This document shows, piece by piece, positions 9,089 through 27,926 of a stretch of 64,000 nucleotides of DNA (the stretch's first letter is position 1; each line of letters starts with the position of its first letter). The stretch is from an uncultured Candidatus Saccharibacteria bacterium (GTDB lineage Bacteria; Patescibacteriota; Doudnabacteria; UBA920). The stretch is from the NCBI GenBank assembly GCA_964505635.1, contig CAZDIP010000001.1, positions 222,412 through 286,411 of the forward strand, written 5' to 3'. The notes under the pieces are model-generated. The model had not been told where the DNA came from. It did not search any database and saw nothing but the letters and a program-made list of their open reading frames with translations. The translations under genes were made by a program, and so were the position numbers.

Positions 9089-9661
9089 ATGGAATTAAGT
9101 ACCATTTTTTTTATTGGTCCCCAAGGATCAGGCAAAGGCACGCAAGCGCGGGCCTTGGCAGAGCGCCTTGGGTTTTTTTATTGGGAGATGGGGGCTATTT
9201 TAAGAGCCATGCGAAACGAAAAGGGTGATTTGGCTAAGCAAGTTACAGAACTTATTGACCAAGGATTCCTACTGACCGATGACATGCTTTTGCAGGTAGT
9301 AAAACAAAAATTATCCATGATTCCAACACAAAAAGGCGTGATTTTTGACGGTATTCCAAGGCGCTTGGGCCAAGCCCAATTTTTGCTCAACGAATTAAAA
9401 AAACAGGGGAGGAAAAATTTTGTAAGTCTGTTTGTCAACTTACCAAAAAGTGAAAGTTTGAGCAGGTTGCTGCTTCGGGCTCAAAAAGAACACAGAGCGG
9501 ACGATACTAAAGAAAAAATAGAATTCCGCTTAAAGCAATACGAGAAAGACACCCTTCCAGTCTTAGATTTTTTAAAGGAAAATACTGCTTTTTTTGAAAT
9601 TGATGGCACGCCCGGTATTGAGACGGTTAAGGAAAATATTAACAAAATTTTACAATTATAA
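9089..9661 (+). CDS. adk: Adenylate kinase (short, LID-less type)
   Basis: It has the P-loop GPQGSGKGTQA, the NMP-binding region and DGIPRR, and sits immediately upstream of map as in the spc operon. Confidence 0.85.
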   Translation: MELSTIFFIGPQGSGKGTQARALAERLGFFYWEMGAILRAMRNEKGDLAKQVTELIDQGFLLTDDMLLQVVKQKLSMIPTQKGVIFDGIPRRLGQAQFLLNELKKQGRKNFVSLFVNLPKSESLSRLLLRAQKEHRADDTKEKIEFRLKQYEKDTLPVLDFLKENTAFFEIDGTPGIETVKENINKILQL

Positions 9662-9672
9662 TTTTATACCGC

Positions 9673-10287
9673 ATGCCTAAAAGCAAAACTTTAAATTTAA
9701 TTTTGTTGGGTGATCCGGCTGCGGGCAAAGCTACCCATGCCAAATATTTATGCCAGGCATTTAATATGTACGACTTGGATATGGGCAAGGAATTAAGAAA
9801 TATTAAAGACGCTAATAAAAAAAAGAGTTTGGGTTTAGACAAAACTCTAGACAAAGGAAAATTAACGCCTACGCAAGTTGTAAGAAAAATTCTGCATGAC
9901 AAAATCCATGGTACGCCAAAAACCAAAGGCATTCTTTTTGACGGGACGCCGAAAATGATAGGCGAGGCCAAGCTGGTAGTTAAGTGGCTTAAAGCAGAAC
10001 AACGGACAAAACCTCTGGTTATTTATATGTCCATTCCCATGAAAGAAACAGTCAAAAGAATGACGGAGCGCAAAGAAGACTTTAAAGGCAAATTTTCCCG
10101 CCGCGCTGACGACGATATAAAGGCTTTGCAAAATCGGGTAAAATATTACCGCGAAAATATTTCTGAAGTTGTAAAATATTTCAAAACAATATATGAATTT
10201 AAAAAAATATCTTCCAACGCCCCGGTACCAAAAGTAAGAAAAATTTTAGTGAAATTAATATCAGATCATGCCAAAAGGATTAATTAA
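9673..10287 (+). CDS. Second NMP/adenylate kinase-like paralog
   Basis: It has the P-loop LLGDPAAGKAT and FDGTPK (a DGFPR-like motif) and lies in tandem with adk. Confidence 0.6.
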   Translation: MPKSKTLNLILLGDPAAGKATHAKYLCQAFNMYDLDMGKELRNIKDANKKKSLGLDKTLDKGKLTPTQVVRKILHDKIHGTPKTKGILFDGTPKMIGEAKLVVKWLKAEQRTKPLVIYMSIPMKETVKRMTERKEDFKGKFSRRADDDIKALQNRVKYYRENISEVVKYFKTIYEFKKISSNAPVPKVRKILVKLISDHAKRIN

Positions 10288-11065: not shown

Positions 11066-12844
11066 TTATTTTTTACTTTTTATTTCTTGTAAAACTAAAC
11101 TAGAAAACTCCTCCGACCCCATCTGCCCCAAATCTTTTCCATCCTGAGTTCTAACAGAAATTAAATTCGAAGACACTTCTTTTTCCCCCACAATTATTTG
11201 GTAGGGGATTTTTTGCATTGTGGCTTCGCGGATTTTTTTGCCTATGCTTTCGTTTCTTTCGTCTATTTCTATTCTTAAATTTTCATCTACTGATAGCAAT
11301 TGCTCCCTCACTTTTTTGGCGTATTGTATTTGATTTTCAGAAATTGGCAAAATTACTAACTGAACAGGGGAGAGCCATAACGGAAAACTCCCGGAATAAT
11401 GTTCAATTAACAGACCTATAAACCTCTCCATAGAGCCATAGATTACTCTGTGGATAGCGACAGGTGTTTTTCTACTGCCGTCTTCTGATACGTACTCCAA
11501 ATTAAATCTTCTAGGCTGCTGAAAATCCAGCTGAATAGTACCCATTTGCCACTCCCGTCCAAGCGCGTCTTTCATTAAAATATCCACTTTAGGCCCGTAA
11601 AAAGCACCGTCACCTTCGGCCACAACGTATTCGCGGCCAGATTTTTCTAAAATTCCCCTTAAAGATTTTTCGGCTTTATTCCAAGTTTCAACATCGCCCA
11701 TAAAACTTTCCGGCCTGGTGCCAAGACGATAACGATACTCCATGCCAAAAATCCCATAAAATAATTTTGTAATTTCAAAAACTCTCTCATACTCTTCGGC
11801 TATCATTTCCTCAGTTATAAAAATATGAGCATCGTCCTGCCGAAATTCTCTCACTCGCAATAAACCGTTTAAGGTACCGGCACGCTCGTAACGGTGAAGC
11901 ATATCTGTATCCGATAATCGCAAAGGCAAATCTTTATAGCTTCTTAGCTTGCTGCCAAAAACTACCATGGCGTTCGGGCAGTTCATTGCCTTAACTCCGT
12001 ATTCTTCATGTTCTCCCATGTTGGCCACAAACATATCGCCCCAGTAGTGCTCAAAGTGACCCGAAGTAATGTATAAATCTTTTTTATTTAAAAGCGGGGA
12101 AACAATTTCATGATACTGCCTTTTTTTATGCTCTTTTCGCCAAAAATCAATTAACTCGTTATACAAAACCACGCCCTTTGGCAGCCAGTAAGGCATTCCG
12201 GGCGAAGTCGTATGGAACATAAATAATTCTAGCTGAGGTCCCAATTTTTTGTGATCCCTTTTTTCCGCTTCTTCAAGCATTTTTAAATAGCCTTCCAATT
12301 CCTCTTTAGTTTCAAAAGCATAGCCGTAAACGCGGGTTAGCATTTTATTTTTTTCATCGCCCCGCCAGTAAGCGCCGGCCACCTTAGCTAATTTAAAAGC
12401 ATCCGGATTTATTTCCTTACTGGGATTTTCCACGTGCCCGCCTTTGCATAAGTCTATAAAGTCAGGGGAGTTATGAAAGGTAATTTTTTTACCGCCTTGC
12501 GCAAATTCATTTATAAGTTCGGTTTTATATTCATTCCACTCAAATTCTTTTAAGGCCTCTTCTTTGGAAACTTCTTTTTTTTCAAAATGAGTCCATTTCG
12601 GAATTAATTTTTTTATTTGTTTTTCAATTTTGGGCAAATCTTTTTCGGTCAGAGTATGCCCGACTATTTCAAAATCCTGATAAAAACCATCTTGTATGGC
12701 CGGGCCAATAGCGTTTTTACTGCCAGGCCAAAGCTCCCGCACAGCCGCGGCGGTTAAATGAGCCAGGGTATGGCGAATATTATGAAGTTTTTGTTCTTTA
12801 TCCATATTCTTTACAATTAATTTTTTATGTGCTAACATTTTCAA
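11066..12844 (-). CDS. thrS: Threonyl-tRNA synthetase (lacking N-terminal TGS extension)
   Basis: It has the class II motifs (HRYERAGTLNGLLRVREFRQDDAHIF) and a C-terminal anticodon-binding domain. Confidence 0.9.
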   Translation of the reverse strand: MKMLAHKKLIVKNMDKEQKLHNIRHTLAHLTAAAVRELWPGSKNAIGPAIQDGFYQDFEIVGHTLTEKDLPKIEKQIKKLIPKWTHFEKKEVSKEEALKEFEWNEYKTELINEFAQGGKKITFHNSPDFIDLCKGGHVENPSKEINPDAFKLAKVAGAYWRGDEKNKMLTRVYGYAFETKEELEGYLKMLEEAEKRDHKKLGPQLELFMFHTTSPGMPYWLPKGVVLYNELIDFWRKEHKKRQYHEIVSPLLNKKDLYITSGHFEHYWGDMFVANMGEHEEYGVKAMNCPNAMVVFGSKLRSYKDLPLRLSDTDMLHRYERAGTLNGLLRVREFRQDDAHIFITEEMIAEEYERVFEITKLFYGIFGMEYRYRLGTRPESFMGDVETWNKAEKSLRGILEKSGREYVVAEGDGAFYGPKVDILMKDALGREWQMGTIQLDFQQPRRFNLEYVSEDGSRKTPVAIHRVIYGSMERFIGLLIEHYSGSFPLWLSPVQLVILPISENQIQYAKKVREQLLSVDENLRIEIDERNESIGKKIREATMQKIPYQIIVGEKEVSSNLISVRTQDGKDLGQMGSEEFSSLVLQEIKSKK

Positions 12845-13039
12845 ACAACCTACCGGAGGTCAAGCTGATTTTGCGATCATTTCTTTTATCATCCGCTGCC
12901 GAGAAACCGAACTTCAGGCAGCAAACGAAGCAAATTTCGCAAAATCGCGCAAACGCGGGCGAGCATTCTTCCTCGGAGTTCCGGGGGGTTATAAGACTCT
13001 TAAAGGTACCGCTACCTCCGGTAGGAATCTCAAAAATTC
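12845..13039 (-). promoter_or_regulatory. Structured thrS 5' leader with 12-bp perfect long-range inverted repeat
   Basis: On the thrS strand CCTACCGGAGGT (13021-13010) and ACCTCCGGTAGG (12860-12849) lie about 150 nt apart. The second copy is 15 nt from the start codon. The interior is GC-rich and there is no ORF. Confidence 0.45.
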
Positions 13040-13738
13040 CTACTTTTTATTTTCTAAATCTATTAACTGCTCTTGCCTGTCTTTCATATTATACTTATTT
13101 AAAAGTTCCAAAGCCTTAGGCTTTGCCTCCTGTATTGCCGCGAAAACTTCTGTTTGCGGCTTTTTTAAAATTTTCAGGCATTCTGCTTTTTTTAACAATA
13201 TGCCGGTTTCTAATATTAACCTATGCCATGGCCTTAGGCTAGGCGAATTACTTTGCCTCACTAGGCTTAAAGCGGAATTAAAATCTATCAATGAATCTTC
13301 AAATCCATTTGCCGCCTTGCTAAGGGCCAAATGACCTAAAAATTCAGCTTTGGTAAAATCTTCAACCCCTTTGTCAGCTAAAACTTGTGCATAGGCTTTT
13401 TTATGTTCTTCTAAGGCCTCTAAAAGCCGGCTTAACGAATAAAAAGCATCTCCTTTGCGCAAATGCATAACTGCCAACGCATGTCCGGTTATGTGTTGCT
13501 GCTTGCAAATTTGCAAAGCCTTGTCTATTTGTTCCAGGATTTGATGCAAATATGCAGGATTATTGGTGGCTTTAAAAAATTTTTTAAAAATGTGGACTTT
13601 ATGTCCTATTCCTTCTAAATAATTTTTGAAGTCGCGGCTTTTTAAAAATTCCTTAAGCTGTTGATTAATCAAACTTTCTGCGTCAGTAATTTTTCCAGTT
13701 TCGGAAAGTATTTCAAATTGCTCAAAAATAGAACTCAT
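13040..13738 (-). CDS. Hypothetical protein
   Basis: I take the start at the internal Met (MSSIFEQ...). The extended N-terminus of the 13831 ORF reads through a stable nested hairpin and is probably non-coding. Confidence 0.4.
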   Translation of the reverse strand: MSSIFEQFEILSETGKITDAESLINQQLKEFLKSRDFKNYLEGIGHKVHIFKKFFKATNNPAYLHQILEQIDKALQICKQQHITGHALAVMHLRKGDAFYSLSRLLEALEEHKKAYAQVLADKGVEDFTKAEFLGHLALSKAANGFEDSLIDFNSALSLVRQSNSPSLRPWHRLILETGILLKKAECLKILKKPQTEVFAAIQEAKPKALELLNKYNMKDRQEQLIDLENKK

Positions 13739-14000
13739 AAAACCAAAAGACCCCGGGATTTTAACTGTAAGTCTACAGTAAAAACCCTGGGGTCTTGGAT
13801 ATAAGACCAAGACGTTTCCGTCCCAGTTCACTTAAGTGGCTCTAGAACACTTAAGTCTTTTTATGCTTTTGTCTCAAACTCCTTAGATTGGTTGTCTAAG
13901 TAGTAACGTTTGAAGAACTGAAAAAATTATAACATAAGCCAAAATAGCTGACAAGCTAAGATTTCCACAACTGGTAAAAAATATTGATTTATAAAAACTA

Positions 14001-14032
14001 TTGACATTTTATATATTATATGATATAATATG
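14001..14032 (+). promoter_or_regulatory. Consensus sigma70-type promoter with extended -10
   Basis: TTGACA (14001-06), a 17-nt spacer, then TGaTATAAT (14021-29). An AT-rich UP-like tract lies upstream and the RBS aaagaaagggggg lies before the ATG at 14078. Confidence 0.7.
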
Positions 14033-14077
14033 TAAATAGGCTGCTCCAAGGGCGGCCTAAAGAAAGGGGGGCTATTC

Positions 14078-14329
14078 ATGGCACATGGCCATGAAAACAA
14101 CCATGGCAACGGCCATGGGAATTCGCACGATGCCCACAAAGATGGGCACGGGCATAAAGAAGAATCAACAGCTTTTTTGGCAGTAAGCGCGTTTGTGCTT
14201 CTGCTGATTTGGCTGGTTGGCCGTTTGCCGGGCGACTGGCCAACCGTACTAAGATTATTTCTCGGCATAGGTTTGGCCGGCTTCTTTGCCACTCTATGGA
14301 AGGGAGGCGACGACCACGGCCACCACTAG
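14078..14329 (+). CDS. His-rich small membrane protein (putative metal-binding)
   Basis: The N-terminus HGHENNHGNGHGNSHDAHKDGHGHKEE has 9 His in 27 aa. It is followed by two predicted TM helices and a C-terminal GDDHGHH. A perfect promoter, an RBS and a terminator bound it. Confidence 0.6.
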   Translation: MAHGHENNHGNGHGNSHDAHKDGHGHKEESTAFLAVSAFVLLLIWLVGRLPGDWPTVLRLFLGIGLAGFFATLWKGGDDHGHH

Positions 14330-14362
14330 ACTCGCAATGCTGTACTCGCGAGTCTTTTTTTT
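14329..14362. terminator. Rho-independent terminator shared with the convergent dnaE
   Basis: The stem gactcgc/gcgagtc is followed by a T8 tract. Confidence 0.6.
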
Positions 14363-17300
14363 ATTCCACGTCAACTTTTAAAACTCCGGAAACTTCTTTA
14401 AGCTTGCTGATAAGCTCGGATGCGACATTTACCCGGCTTTGGGCTTTAATTTTTTTAGCATTAGGCCCGCTACCCAAAAGCAGATACACCTGAGCCTGGC
14501 CCGGAAAAGCCGTTAAAATTTGTTTTATTTCATTAAGCGCCGAGGAGTTGCTTAAATTCTGCATATGCAAAACCAAGTGCTTATTTTTTTCAACCTCTTT
14601 TAAAGCTACACTGTAAAGCTCGTCTGAGGGCAGGACCTTAATTTCTTCCGCAATTAACTTAAATTCTTCGTCTTTGTCGGAAAGCCGGCCTCTGACCTGC
14701 ACAATTTGGTCATTTGCCAAAAACGGCAAGGCCGCTTCCATCACTTTAGGAAAAACTAAAACTTCCACGCTGCCGGTGCCGTCTTCCAAGGTAAAAAAAG
14801 CCATGGGGTCATTTTTTTTAGTCAAAGTTTTTTTAAGACGGGAAATTATTCCGCCCATTACCACATTCTGGCCCAGCATATCCAAATGTAAATTTTTAAC
14901 TAAAATTAGGCCGTTCAGCACTTTACGATAATTGTCCAAAGGGTGGGCGGAAACATACATGCCTAAATGCTCTTTCTCCCAAACTAATTTTTCTTCTTTA
15001 CCTGCAGGGGGGAATGATTTTAAGGTTAATTTGCCGAAATGCATGTTTTTTCCAAACAAAGAATTTTGACCCGAATTTTCCGCTTTAAAATGTTCGCGTA
15101 CGAATTCCAAAACCTCATCGGTATTGTTTAGCAAGCTGCCGCGTTCGCCGAAGGCGTCCAAAGCTCCGGCTTTTACAAGCGCCTCCCAGGATTTTTTGTT
15201 AAAGTTTTTAACATGGCATTTTAAAAGAAAATCCTGAAGGGAAAGGAAAACGGGTGAACCATAGGCATTACTATGACGATAACTAAAATCCGCATCTGCA
15301 GATTTATTATTGTTATTGTCATTACTAACCTTGCCCTGCCTGGCCTCCATAATTCTTTGTATCACGTCGCTGCCTAAATTCTTTATGGCATTAAGTCCAA
15401 AACGAATGGTTTTTTCATCCACTACCGTAAAATCTCCCATAGATTCCCGAACATCCGGCGGTAAAACCGAAATACCCAATGCCTTACATTCTTCCACAGC
15501 TTCGTAAATTTTATCTTCATCGCCGCTTTCGGCGGTCATTAACGCCGCCATAAATTCTACCGGGTAATTTGCTTTCATGTAAGCCGTCTGGTAGGATACG
15601 ACCGAATAAGAAGCCGAGTGGGCTTTATTAAAACCATAGGCCGCGAAAGGTTCAATCCAGGTCCAAATCTGCTCGGCCTTTTGGTGGCTCCAGTTGCTGG
15701 TTTTCTGACAACCTTGAATAAATTTAATTTTTTGCTTAGCCATTTCTTCAGGAATTTTTTTACCCACCGCTTTGCGGAATTTATCCACCTCTTCCCAGGA
15801 ATACCCGGCCAAATCATGGGCAATGGTTAGCAAATCGTCCTGGTAAACCAAAATTCCATATGTCCTATGCAGTATCTTTTCAAATGCCGGATCCAGATAG
15901 TTAATCAACTTTGAATTATGCTTGCGTTTAATATAATCTTCTATAAACTGCATGGGCCCGGGACGGTACAAAGCTATCATGGCCATAATGTCAAAAACTG
16001 AGCTGGGTTTTAGTTCTTTTAAATACCTGGTCATTCCCGAAGATCCCATTTGAAACACCCCAAAAGTAAGTCCGTCGGACAAAAGTTTAAAGGTTTTTTG
16101 GTCAGGGTGGGGGAGATTATAAATATCAATTTTAATACCGTGTCTTTTTTCAACCAGATTAACTGCCGCTTCCAGAATAGAAAGATTGCGAATCCCTAGC
16201 AAATCCAGCTTTACAACTCCAATGGCTTTGGAGCTGGCATTAACATCCAAAGCATACATATCATACTGGGTAATAACCCTCTCGCCATCGGGTTCTTTTT
16301 GCAATGGCATGTAGTCGGTTAGTTGGGTAGGGGTAATAACAATGCCGGCCGCGTGAACGGAAGCATGGCGCGCGCAGCCCTCCAATTTTTTTGCAATCGT
16401 CAAAATCCGCCTGGTTTCCGGATCCTGATCGTAAATGGCTTTTAACTCGGGGGTTTTTTCAAGCGCAATGTCTAGCGTCATATGAAAGCCCTGTTTGCCG
16501 ATGGGAATCATTTTGGCAATCTGGTCACACTTGGAATAAGGCACGCCGAGGGCCCGGCCAACGTCCCTAACGGCAGCGCGAGCCATCATGGTTCCAAAGG
16601 TAATAATTTGCGCGACTTTGTCCGAGCCGTACTTTTGGGTAATATAAGCAATGGCTTCGTCGCGGCGGTTATCGGCAATATCAAGGTCAATATCGGGCGG
16701 AGTCGGCCGATGCATGGTTAAAAATCTTTCAAATGGCAGCTCGTAGTAAAGAGGGTCCACATTAGTAATACCTAAAATCCTGCCGACAATGCTGCCGGCA
16801 GCGCTGCCCCTGGTATTGGTAATGGCGCCGATATTGTGGGCGCCTTTCACCGCATCGGCCACCATTAAAAAATAAGTGTCGAATCCCTTTTTACAGATAA
16901 TATTTAACTCATAATTTATGCGCTCAATAATTTCTTCGGGCACCTGTCCGTTTTGTCCATAAATCTCTTTTGCACTTTCATGCACAATTTGATTCAAATA
17001 GGTTTGTGAATCTAGGCCGGAAGGAATTTCCACTTTTGGGAAGTAACGCTGGTCAATCTGGATTTCCAGGTCGCACATATCGGCTATTTTTTGCGTATTA
17101 TGCAAAGCTTCCGGGACGTCGTAAAATAGTTCGTGCATTTTTTCAGGCGACTTTAAAGACAGATCATAACCCCGCATATCCAAACGGTCTTGCTCTTCCA
17201 CAGTGCGTCCCGTGCCAATACATACCATCACATCCTGAGCTTCACTGTCTTCCGGGTATATGTAGTGGCAATCGGCGGTGGCGACCAAGTTTAAACTTCT

Positions 17301-27038: not shown

Positions 27039-27123
27039 TGGTGGGCGGTGCAGGACTCGAACCTGCGAAGCCGTAAGGCACCTGATTTACAGTCAGGTGT
27101 AATTGCCGCTATACGAACCGCCC
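27039..27123 (-). tRNA. tRNA-Tyr (GUA), type II with long variable arm, CCA encoded
   Basis: The reverse complement gives acceptor GGGCGGT/ACCGCCC, anticodon loop CTGTAAA, a 14-nt variable arm and T-loop TTCGAGT. Confidence 0.85.
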
Positions 27124-27926
27124 ATACTTGTAAATTTTTTAAGTCTCTCTTCGTGTTTTTTGTTCTTAAAACCTATCTCGGTGATATATTTATTTATGTC
27201 CGATTTTCTGGTTAAGTATACACTATGTACACTAATTTTGGAAGGGCTGAAGTTTAGGTTTAAAAATGCCTGTCTAACATCCGCGAGCAGAAGTTTTGAA
27301 AGGTTGGAAAAAGAAATTTGTACCCCTTTATGCATTTTATAGACCGATCCGTCCGTATCGATTAAACCCCTTAAAACAGATTTTAAATATACTTTCCTCT
27401 TAAAAATCCAGGCAGGTATTTTAACCTGTGATTTGGTTTTATTATGAGCCATCCCTTGCCCTAAAAGCCATTTAACCGCTACTGAAGAGCCAAAATACAC
27501 AACTTGGTCGCCCCTTTTAGTGATAATTGTTTTTGGCTTTGAATTAAATACCTTTTTCATTAATTCTGAAACATGCGGGGCATACTTATCTTTTGTGCCT
27601 AACGTAACCGTGACTTGGGTTTTAGTAATATGACCGTCTCCTAAAATTATGCCTATTAATTCAGCTAAATCGCCGGAATATTTTTTTGGCAAAATAATAT
27701 TTTTATTTATATTATTATATCCGGCTTTTTTATCACGTAAAGTTTTTATATTTAGCCTAACTAATCTGTCATAAACGCTATTCTCTGCTAAGTCTAATAT
27801 TTTTGCAATCTCGTTTATGGCTTTATTTTGTTTGACATATAGAAATACAAGCTGTTGCTTGTTTTTTAAACATTCTTGTCTTGTCCATTTTCTGGCCATA
27901 TTTAGATAATATGTAAAAATTGACAT
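27093..27926 (-). CDS. LAGLIDADG homing endonuclease with N-terminal HTH domain (free-standing)
   Basis: It has two LAGLIDADG motifs (LIGIILGDGHI, LRGLIDTDGSV) and an N-terminal HTH (AINEIAKILDLAENSVYDRL). The 3' end overlaps the first 31 nt of tRNA-Tyr. Confidence 0.75.
   Translation of the reverse strand: MSIFTYYLNMARKWTRQECLKNKQQLVFLYVKQNKAINEIAKILDLAENSVYDRLVRLNIKTLRDKKAGYNNINKNIILPKKYSGDLAELIGIILGDGHITKTQVTVTLGTKDKYAPHVSELMKKVFNSKPKTIITKRGDQVVYFGSSVAVKWLLGQGMAHNKTKSQVKIPAWIFKRKVYLKSVLRGLIDTDGSVYKMHKGVQISFSNLSKLLLADVRQAFLNLNFSPSKISVHSVYLTRKSDINKYITEIGFKNKKHEERLKKFTSMGGSYSGNYT

Follow-up and report, generated by a model that had tools for sequence, protein, structure and literature searches.

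Hpn, Hpn-like proteins and the histidine-rich tails of UreE, HypB and SlyD are soluble and cytoplasmic, serve in nickel storage or delivery and are tied to the maturation of urease or hydrogenase. Among small membrane proteins, CbtB has one transmembrane (TM) helix and a His-rich C-terminal tail in which metal is likely to bind, and the cbtB gene always accompanies cbtA (PMC3596284). CbiN is the two-TM partner of CbiM in the CbiMQO cobalt energy-coupling factor (ECF) transporter and acts via its extracytoplasmic loop (PMC7689651), and DUF2933 genes lie in MerR-CopA-cupredoxin-DUF2933-ICMT clusters (PMC8478169). Here, we describe an 83-residue, His-rich mini-protein with two predicted membrane helices, encoded by a compact transcription unit at positions 14001–14362 of a 64,000-nucleotide stretch (the window, meaning the whole stretch that was analyzed) of contig CAZDIP010000001.1, from an uncultured Candidatus Saccharibacteria bacterium that is placed by GTDB in the Doudnabacteria. 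The unit lies in the slot between thrS and the 3′ end of the convergent dnaE gene, and its features are as follows.

14001–14006, plus strand: −35 hexamer TTGACA, read from the window sequence
Between 14006 and 14024, plus strand: promoter spacer of 17 nt, ending TGA
14021–14029, plus strand: extended −10 element TGaTATAAT, with TG at 14021–14022 and TATAAT at 14024–14029 (12/12 with TG)
14037–14059, plus strand: predicted hairpin at the mRNA 5′ end, 10 bp with a 3-nt loop (fold ΔG −17.1 kcal/mol, z only −1.7)
14063–14071, plus strand: ribosome-binding site (RBS) AAAGGGGGG, 6 nt upstream of the ATG, by direct sequence reading
14078–14329, plus strand: coding sequence, 83 amino acids (aa) plus TAG stop, frame 0 open in all five loci
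14078–14164, plus strand: His-rich N-terminal tail, residues 1–29, with His at 3, 5, 9, 13, 17, 20, 24 and 26 (alignment; coil in AlphaFold)
14165–14221, plus strand: hydrophobic helix 1, residues ~30–48 (hydropathy peak 2.3; AlphaFold helix 28–49)
14222–14239, plus strand: short turn RLPGDW, residues 49–54, with invariant P51 and with invariant P55 next (alignment A3)
14240–14299, plus strand: hydrophobic helix 2, residues ~55–74 (hydropathy; AlphaFold helix 54–74)
14300–14326, plus strand: C-terminal tail KGGDDHGHH, DHGHH invariant (alignment)
14328–14362, plus strand: intrinsic terminator, stem 14328–14335/14348–14355, 12-nt loop, T8 at 14355–14362 (fold)

A preliminary description of this DNA had proposed an isolated transcription unit for an 83-aa protein. 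The unit is well formed: promoter, RBS, 83-aa open reading frame (ORF) and terminator were all found at the positions given. The perfect −35/−10 pair with an extended −10 that it reported is present in full, and the exact pattern TTGACA-17-TGnTATAAT occurs once in the 64-kb window against 0.01 occurrences expected from shuffles. The hairpin and T8 terminator is equally well defined, with an 8-bp stem (ΔG −11.8 kcal/mol, z = −3.5) that none of 200 shuffles matched in folding; a simple terminator scanner skipped it because its 12-nt loop is longer than 8 nt, and its T-run shares nucleotides with the stop codon of dnaE, the convergent neighbor (TTA at 14361–14363). Together, a consensus −35/−10 pair spaced by 17 nt and a GC hairpin with a T-run 3′ of the stop constitute the elements of a sigma-70 promoter and intrinsic terminator unit. 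The 'strong RBS' of the same description stands in part: a G-rich site does lie 6 nt before the ATG, but it is a G6 run without the canonical AGGAGG (the homologues carry GAAGGAGGG). The transcript would start at ~14036 and run to ~14362, a length of ~320 nt, placing the predicted hairpin in its 5′ leader as a putative mRNA stabilizer.

The encoded protein has the layout MAHGHENNHGNGHGNSHDAHKDGHGHKEE, two hydrophobic helices and then KGGDDHGHH. Its 11 histidines (13%) compare with a content of 1.9% in the other proteins of the window, and no other window ORF approaches this density. The first 27 residues were said to contain nine histidines; the count is eight. The two hydrophobic helices and the His-containing C-terminus noted at the same time are borne out, the former by agreement between the hydropathy profile and AlphaFold and the latter by the alignment, in which DHGHH does not vary among members. 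The AlphaFold model, computed from a four-sequence alignment, places the helices at 28–49 and 54–74 on either side of a short Pro-containing turn, with both tails as coil, albeit with low confidence (predicted local distance difference test, pLDDT, 62). From this model and the hydropathy profile, we infer a two-helix membrane hairpin; two membrane-spanning helices would leave the N- and C-tails on the same side of the membrane.

Homologues were sought with a word-indexed search of 5.8 billion clusters, an exhaustive HMMER search of 1.84 billion representatives and two profile searches, and only three were found: P0001 (93% identical), P0002 (84 aa, ~38%) and P0003 (85 aa, ~43–46%). All three occupy the same slot, between the thrS region and the 3′ end of convergent dnaE. 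DNA of the clade was detected in SRR11567540, SRR12487046, ERZ4216102 and the JGI sets 3300045388 and 3300045348; the sample accessions were looked up in the literature as a clue to the environment, and no paper was found to name them. Together with the window protein they make a family of four members, and the loci fall into two subclades (the window and L001 versus L002, L004 and L005). A search with the DnaE C-terminus returned 78 loci, all from metagenome-assembled genomes of Candidatus Doudnabacteria or Patescibacteria; the mini-gene is present only in the closest of them (L006, where the copy is identical to P0002), and the other 77 species have no His-rich small ORF, no match to the hidden Markov model (HMM) and no DNA similarity to 13961–14362. 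The nearest sister without the gene is L007 or L008. By this survey, the family is confined to one genus-level clade of Doudnabacteria (Patescibacteria). Searches of plasmid and viral sequences yielded no relatives, and a mobile-element origin was rejected on that absence.

Several observations indicate that the mini-gene is a true gene. Across the five related loci, only the sense frame stays open throughout, and there is no conservation of the antisense ORF. Between L002 and L004 the synonymous substitution rate (dS) is 0.44 for the mini-gene and 0.42 for the adjacent dnaE, and the two therefore share one history; the nonsynonymous rate (dN) is 0.22 versus 0.022, ten times higher for the mini-gene. 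Between the subclades, DnaE is ~85% identical and the mini-protein ~38%. The overall dN/dS of the mini-gene lies at 0.34–0.51 in comparisons with unsaturated dS, and it is distributed unevenly along the protein.

Residues 1–29, N-tail: identity between subclades 54–61%; dN/dS 0.15–0.23
Residues 30–75, two-helix core: identity between subclades 24–29%; dN/dS 0.47–0.68
Residues 76–83, C-tail: identity between subclades 62–88%; dN/dS 0.38–1.0 (only about 24 sites)

In the N-tail, 13 of the 29 alignment columns are invariant, including H5, H9, H13, H20, H24 and H26 and, besides histidine, G10, N11, K21, D22 and G25. Every member has 8–10 His in the N-tail and three in the C-tail, and no member has any in the helices. 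Once processed, the N-terminus would read AHGH in the window protein and SDH, an ATCUN-type motif, in the other subclade. Nine histidines are invariant; they form two clusters with spacings of mostly 2 and 4, the clustered and conserved pattern (HxH, Hx3H) that characterizes the functional class of His-rich metal-binding segments. The His-rich tails are, by these measures, the most constrained part of the mini-protein and under purifying selection, which excludes a low-complexity artefact. Loss of the His-rich region among homologues had been named beforehand as the result that would count against the protein, and the outcome was in its favor. When the window is compared with L001, the N-tail at first looks like a 'hot spot' of substitution; this was rejected, since nine changes in 87 nt are unremarkable for sequences that differ by ~6% overall (dnaE dS 0.09); the remainder of the transcription unit, outside the N-tail, is unusually conserved between these two.

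The same data bear on whether the gene is young and only marginally functional: an ORF born or inserted behind a very strong promoter that was already there, expressed for that reason and under weak selection only. In favor of this, the family consists of four sequences from a single clade and has left no trace, as DNA or as protein, in the 77 other species; the protein evolves ten times faster than its neighbor DnaE; its helices have dN/dS of 0.5–0.7; and the promoter predates the ORF (see below). Its composition is atypical as well: GC is 0.54 versus 0.39 for the genome, and GC at third codon positions (GC3) is 0.55–0.62 versus 0.38 ± 0.06 (window 14078–14326; L002 164–415; L004 3611–3865), exceeding the 0.44 expected from the amino-acid composition. 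A foreign origin of the gene may account for this excess, as may selection acting on its codons or RNA structure. The idea that high GC3 marks high expression was considered and rejected, as the genes for ribosomal protein S2 and EF-Ts are not GC3-rich; the GC3-richest genes examined encode a DUF1761 membrane protein and an uncharacterized ORF. Against a marginal gene stand the persistence of ORF, length and architecture beyond saturation of dS (window versus L002 and L004), the low dN/dS of the N-tail with its 13 invariant columns and the invariant DHGHH, and the retention of RBS, 5′ hairpin and terminator through compensating sequences. We therefore consider this explanation unlikely.

The compensating sequences are seen most clearly between subclades. 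The −35 TTGACA is the same in L001, L002, L004 and L005, and −35, TG and −10 are all kept in the other subclade (L002, L004 and L005), the −10 being TGcTATAAT in L002 and L004, while merely nine of the 17 spacer positions are identical. The leader hairpin of L002 and L004 differs in sequence (TTGCCC-AGAAAA-GGGCAA) and matches that of the window in position; their terminator has a different, 9-bp stem, followed by T6–T9, directly after the stop codon. The 5′ hairpin, RBS and terminator are thus kept by position and function, not by sequence. Whether such hexamers are read at all in this phylum can be judged from the promoter of the thrS leader, which lies on the opposite strand, back-to-back with that of the mini-gene.

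13735–13925, minus strand: structured thrS leader, conserved in ~55 of 78 loci
13954 to 13926, minus strand: thrS leader promoter TTGTCA-17-TATAAT

At its fixed position in 27 species, this promoter has a mean score of 9.7/12 against a background of 7.3, with none reaching 12. By this positionally fixed promoter, the use of sigma-70-type hexamers in the phylum is validated; their use, together with the conserved signals, allows high expression of the mini-gene to be soundly inferred, and the gene is probably very strongly expressed.

A small, hydrophobic, free-standing and unannotated product with eight His codons among its first 26 could also suggest a type I toxin, a holin-like peptide that damages membranes or a regulatory leader peptide rich in His codons. 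For a type I toxin–antitoxin pair, neither an antisense promoter nor an antisense RNA signal was found within the gene (14078–14362), and a maximal, constitutive promoter is the opposite of what silenced toxins carry. For a leader peptide, the stop is followed by the terminator and then by a convergent gene, which leaves no downstream target for attenuation. Leader-peptide, toxin and ribosomally synthesized and post-translationally modified peptide readings were accordingly rejected on context, and we regard this whole group of explanations as very improbable.

The slot and its promoter extend well beyond the mini-gene. In seven loci without it, a perfect TTGACA-17-TATAAT lies on the same strand, 92–108 nt from the leader start; the corresponding distance in the window is ~83 nt.

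L010, ~7498, minus strand: perfect slot promoter
L016, ~8130, minus strand: perfect slot promoter
L019, ~9254, minus strand: perfect slot promoter
L023, ~7573, minus strand: perfect slot promoter
L032, ~8036, minus strand: perfect slot promoter
L045, ~7178, minus strand: perfect slot promoter
L047, ~7601, minus strand: perfect slot promoter

In L036, the site scores 11/12. Of the 13 perfect promoters across 880 kb of these loci, nine fall at the slot site and strand; seven of the nine were confirmed by the systematic scan, and those of L053 and L071 were judged by position only. The promoter region of the window is 85% identical to that of L032 over 41 nt. Because the same promoter stands at the same site in species without the mini-gene, sequence comparison indicates that the perfect promoter is an older feature of the slot and did not evolve for the His-rich protein.

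What lies behind the promoter elsewhere is varied: short unrelated ORFs and at least two recurrent families of small membrane proteins, one of ~35–40 aa with a single TM helix and a C-terminal GRxGRxWSG, the other of ~65–90 aa with two TM helices followed by ESRAENK. Examples of slot ORFs are listed below.

L023, 6963–7333: slot ORF
L033, 6991–7408: slot ORF
L016, 7075–7182: slot ORF
L026, 6933–7046: slot ORF
L030, 6885–6992: slot ORF
L079, 7286–7501: slot ORF

Slot ORFs with at least two TM helices number 18 on the strand of the mini-gene and none on the opposite strand. The slot ORFs of L010, L016, L019 and L032 are short and inconsistent, and Rfam recognized no structured RNA downstream of the perfect promoters in the slots of L010, L016 and L023. 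Homology of the His-rich family to the other slot proteins was tried by HMM, by all-versus-all phmmer and by hhalign (probability ~1%), each time with a negative outcome.

This pattern lends weight to a different function, namely that of a small membrane protein whose main job has nothing to do with metal, such as modulating a membrane protein or the envelope, with the tails acting as a pH-titratable charge switch or a protein-contact surface. Other Doudnabacteria slots hold unrelated, His-free small membrane proteins at the same promoter position, suggesting a generic niche for an abundant small membrane protein; moreover, the invariant tail residues include the non-histidines listed above, and metal genes were not found nearby. 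On the other side, nine invariant histidines in two clusters, with i+2/i+4 spacing and acidic neighbors, are the classic make-up of a metal-binding segment, and no candidate partner protein was identified. A non-metal modulator seems to us a minority prospect.

We favor, tentatively and at somewhat short of an even chance, an abundant micro-protein, anchored in the membrane, that binds divalent transition metals with its His clusters. In this mechanism, the pre-existing, maximal-strength promoter of the slot would provide independent, constitutive and very strong expression of a small membrane protein; a two-helix membrane hairpin would place the flexible N-tail (~29 residues, 8–10 His) and the C-terminal DHGHH on the same side; the tails would bind divalent transition metals (Zn, Ni, Cu or Co) through imidazole clusters spaced i+2 and i+4; and the protein, plentiful and tethered to the membrane, would serve as a sponge, buffer or hand-off point for metal. 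The case for metal is made by selection acting on the His clusters, by the i+2/i+4 spacing with acidic and Asn/Gly neighbors that is typical of metal-binding segments, and by the few weak matches of the tail, all of them to metal segments rich in His (that of UreE, a ZnuA loop and a CobW/COG0523-like insert). A metal role is therefore plausible from composition and from analogy with the His-rich segments of Zn, Ni and Co proteins.

A number of observations weigh against this interpretation. The genes of the window are housekeeping genes (DnaB, CysRS, a Kef-type exchanger, two adenylate kinases, MAP, ThrRS, DnaE, FtsW, L25, PrmC, RF1, S2, EF-Ts and others), and the 64 kb contain no metal transporter, chaperone or metalloregulator except for an unlinked VIT1-family transporter gene 12 kb away. 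The check for neighboring metal transporters or regulators that the preliminary description had recommended thus found none linked, and its suggestion of an accessory to a transporter has no partner gene to support it. There is no conserved operator-like element at the mini-gene promoter. That other species keep unrelated His-free membrane proteins behind the same promoter means that the slot itself carries no metal logic, and a family of only four sequences with almost neutrally evolving helices points to a gene that is young or dispensable. Finally, the structural model is of low confidence, as noted above, and charge provides no topology: the loop has one Arg (conserved) and the tails carry net charges of −1 to −4. 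Tails facing inward would suit a buffer or store, and tails facing outward a role in capture or at the surface.

That charge distribution, net-negative tails beside a loop holding the only conserved Arg, is compatible with tails facing outward, as would be required of a host-directed or surface-interaction peptide of an episymbiont, whose tails bind the host (possibly through metal bridges) or perturb membranes in the manner of His-rich antimicrobial peptides. Rapid evolution and restriction to one lineage fit an interaction factor, and Patescibacteria are generally described as epibionts (PMC11665869). A signal peptide and a secretion context are absent, however, the two-helix anchor would hold the protein in the producer's own membrane, and the tails are conserved rather than diversifying; a role of this kind appears quite improbable.

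If the tails of the favored metal-binding protein do bind metal, it would represent a minimal, free-standing, membrane-anchored metal buffer in a very small genome, and a simple system for trace-metal supply or tolerance in ultra-small symbionts that do without the customary chaperones and regulators. In practical terms the value is modest, as the family is tiny, the organism uncultured and the function inferred. One could go further and view the slot as a conserved, maximal-expression 'landing pad' in which the perfect sigma-70 promoter, back-to-back with that of the thrS leader, would persist from species to species as unrelated genes for small membrane proteins are repeatedly born or captured behind it. 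The His-rich gene would be a recent arrival, possibly de novo or by capture from a GC-richer source, since favored by selection because its abundant product captures metal at the surface or membrane of an ultra-small symbiont without conventional metallochaperones; taken as a whole, we hold this scenario to be speculative and rather doubtful. Whatever its function, the locus illustrates how cargo behind a conserved maximal promoter can be swapped between lineages, and how a seemingly young, fast-evolving micro-protein may be kept by selection on its composition-rich tails and not on its helices.

The thrS leader on the other side of the back-to-back promoters was aligned across 27 loci, one per species (alignment A4). 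Of 38 RNAalifold pairs, 24 are kept through double changes, and in the antiterminator model 95.9% of cells are paired, with none of 500 shuffles reaching the observed pairing or covariation score. Several features resemble a T-box. The terminal loop of a covarying Stem I shows the same ACCA in all 27 species, displaying ACC, a Thr codon, as the specifier, and a tRNA-Thr(GGU) is encoded in the window. The invariant CUGGGACGGAAACGUC makes helix A1 (CUGGG with CCCAG), the bulge ACGGAAAC of 8 nt and helix A2, which covaries. A1 is 100% paired; the terminator, long and covarying, uses the 3′ arm of A1 as its own 5′ arm and precedes a U-run, so that antiterminator and terminator helices are mutually exclusive. 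In all known T-boxes, however, the bulge measures 7 nt, UGGN forming its 5′ edge (PMC7583486). Here an invariant 8 nt, ACGGAAAC, stands in place of the canonical UGGN-ACC, and of it only GGA can pair, with U73-C74-C75 of both tRNA-Thr genes, and the Rfam T-box model RF00230 gave no match at E ≤ 10 in the window, L035 or L019. Judged by these alignments, the leader may be a divergent T-box or a new class of thrS leader in Patescibacteria.

Further elements were observed around thrS. A 263-aa ORF without a Pfam match (13040–13831, minus strand) has its listed GTG start inside the thrS leader; its true start is probably M33 (ATG ~13735), directly after the leader terminator. It occurs only in the window and L001, between leader and thrS, and the equivalent stretch of L004 has no ORF. 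A possible small RNA gene runs divergently from thrS (window ~12845–13165, plus strand; L004 2837–3030), with a promoter-like site at 12810–12838, terminator-like hairpins at 13020–13044 and 13137–13160 and, in L004, a long closing stem; conservation of this candidate extends no further than the window, L001 and L004. In the sister subclade, a GC-rich hairpin-forming element that the window lacks, TCCCGGCTCGCGCCCTCGGCTGCACTCGGGCTTGGCCGGGA (L002 1–46, L003 306–350, L004 3452–3496), separates the leader of thrS from the promoter of the mini-gene. Elsewhere in the window, tandem genes of the adenylate-kinase family, encoding 190 aa and 204 aa (9089–10287, plus strand), are unusual for a reduced genome, and a 277-aa LAGLIDADG-domain ORF (27093–27926, minus strand) overlaps or abuts a tRNA-Tyr gene on the same strand (27039–27123) and may be a homing endonuclease associated with the tRNA gene.

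Returning to the mini-protein, its relation to described families was assessed one by one. As the preliminary description had also concluded, no characterized homologue emerged from Pfam, NCBIfam, the PDB or the large sequence searches. None of the four members matches a Pfam or NCBIfam family or a solved structure; the best candidate, DUF5134, reaches 14.3 bits (E 0.017–0.042) for two of the four, below the gathering threshold of 29 bits, as would fit a generic TM match. Matches to GFP-fusion entries in the PDB (E 0.008) arise from a chance resemblance of GRLPGDWPT to GFP GKLPVPWPT and disappeared with the profile search. A 523-aa metagenomic protein (L084 29–1600), called a CobW/COG0523-like GTPase from its sequence motifs, has a long His-rich insert with DGHKDAHGH, which also occurs in the N-tails of P0002 and P0003; the match is limited to this insert, and homology was rejected in favor of compositional convergence.

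Of the systems introduced at the outset, CbtB is similarly a very small membrane protein with a His-rich tail, but the mini-protein has two helices and a long His-rich N-tail besides its C-tail; none of the four members matches CbtB in Pfam or NCBIfam even at E ≤ 10, and neither a cbtA gene nor a CbtA model match was found in the 64-kb window or in the slots of related loci. CbiN is likewise a small two-helix membrane protein and works in metal uptake, but it is not His-rich; there was no match to its model, and CbiM, CbiQ and CbiO were not found in the window. DUF2933 shares the combination of a two-TM hairpin and a His run: two real examples from a copper-resistance plasmid are two-TM hairpins of roughly 110 aa with the run HGKHGHDHEH. 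Their His run, however, follows TM2, and they have an LLLCPxMHIFMH motif in TM2 and an EHGxH loop, whereas the mini-protein has no Cys/Met motif, no His in its helices and no copper cluster; there is no Pfam match, hhalign of alignment A3 against the two proteins gives a probability of 1.2%, and the TM2 motif is absent from A3. Hpn, Hpn-like proteins, UreE, HypB and SlyD are very His-rich and abundant and bind several metal ions through flexible segments, as is proposed for the mini-protein; they differ in that the mini-protein is predicted to be membrane-anchored, with no urease or hydrogenase genes in view; the UreE tail is its only NCBIfam match, and not a significant one. The His-rich loops of COG0523/CobW, ZnuA and ZIP or cation diffusion facilitator proteins have similar HxH, HGH and D/N/K-spaced repeats, and a ZnuA loop is a weak PDB match to the tail; these loops are built into large folded proteins and resemble the tail in composition, whereas the mini-protein is free-standing and the His-rich segments are its only polar parts.

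By sequence, then, the searches indicate that the mini-protein family is an orphan. By kind, the analogies set out here suggest a variant within the known class of small His-rich metal-binding membrane proteins, one that would differ from the described members in having no partner gene, in being His-rich at both ends and in being expressed from an inherited promoter of maximal strength.

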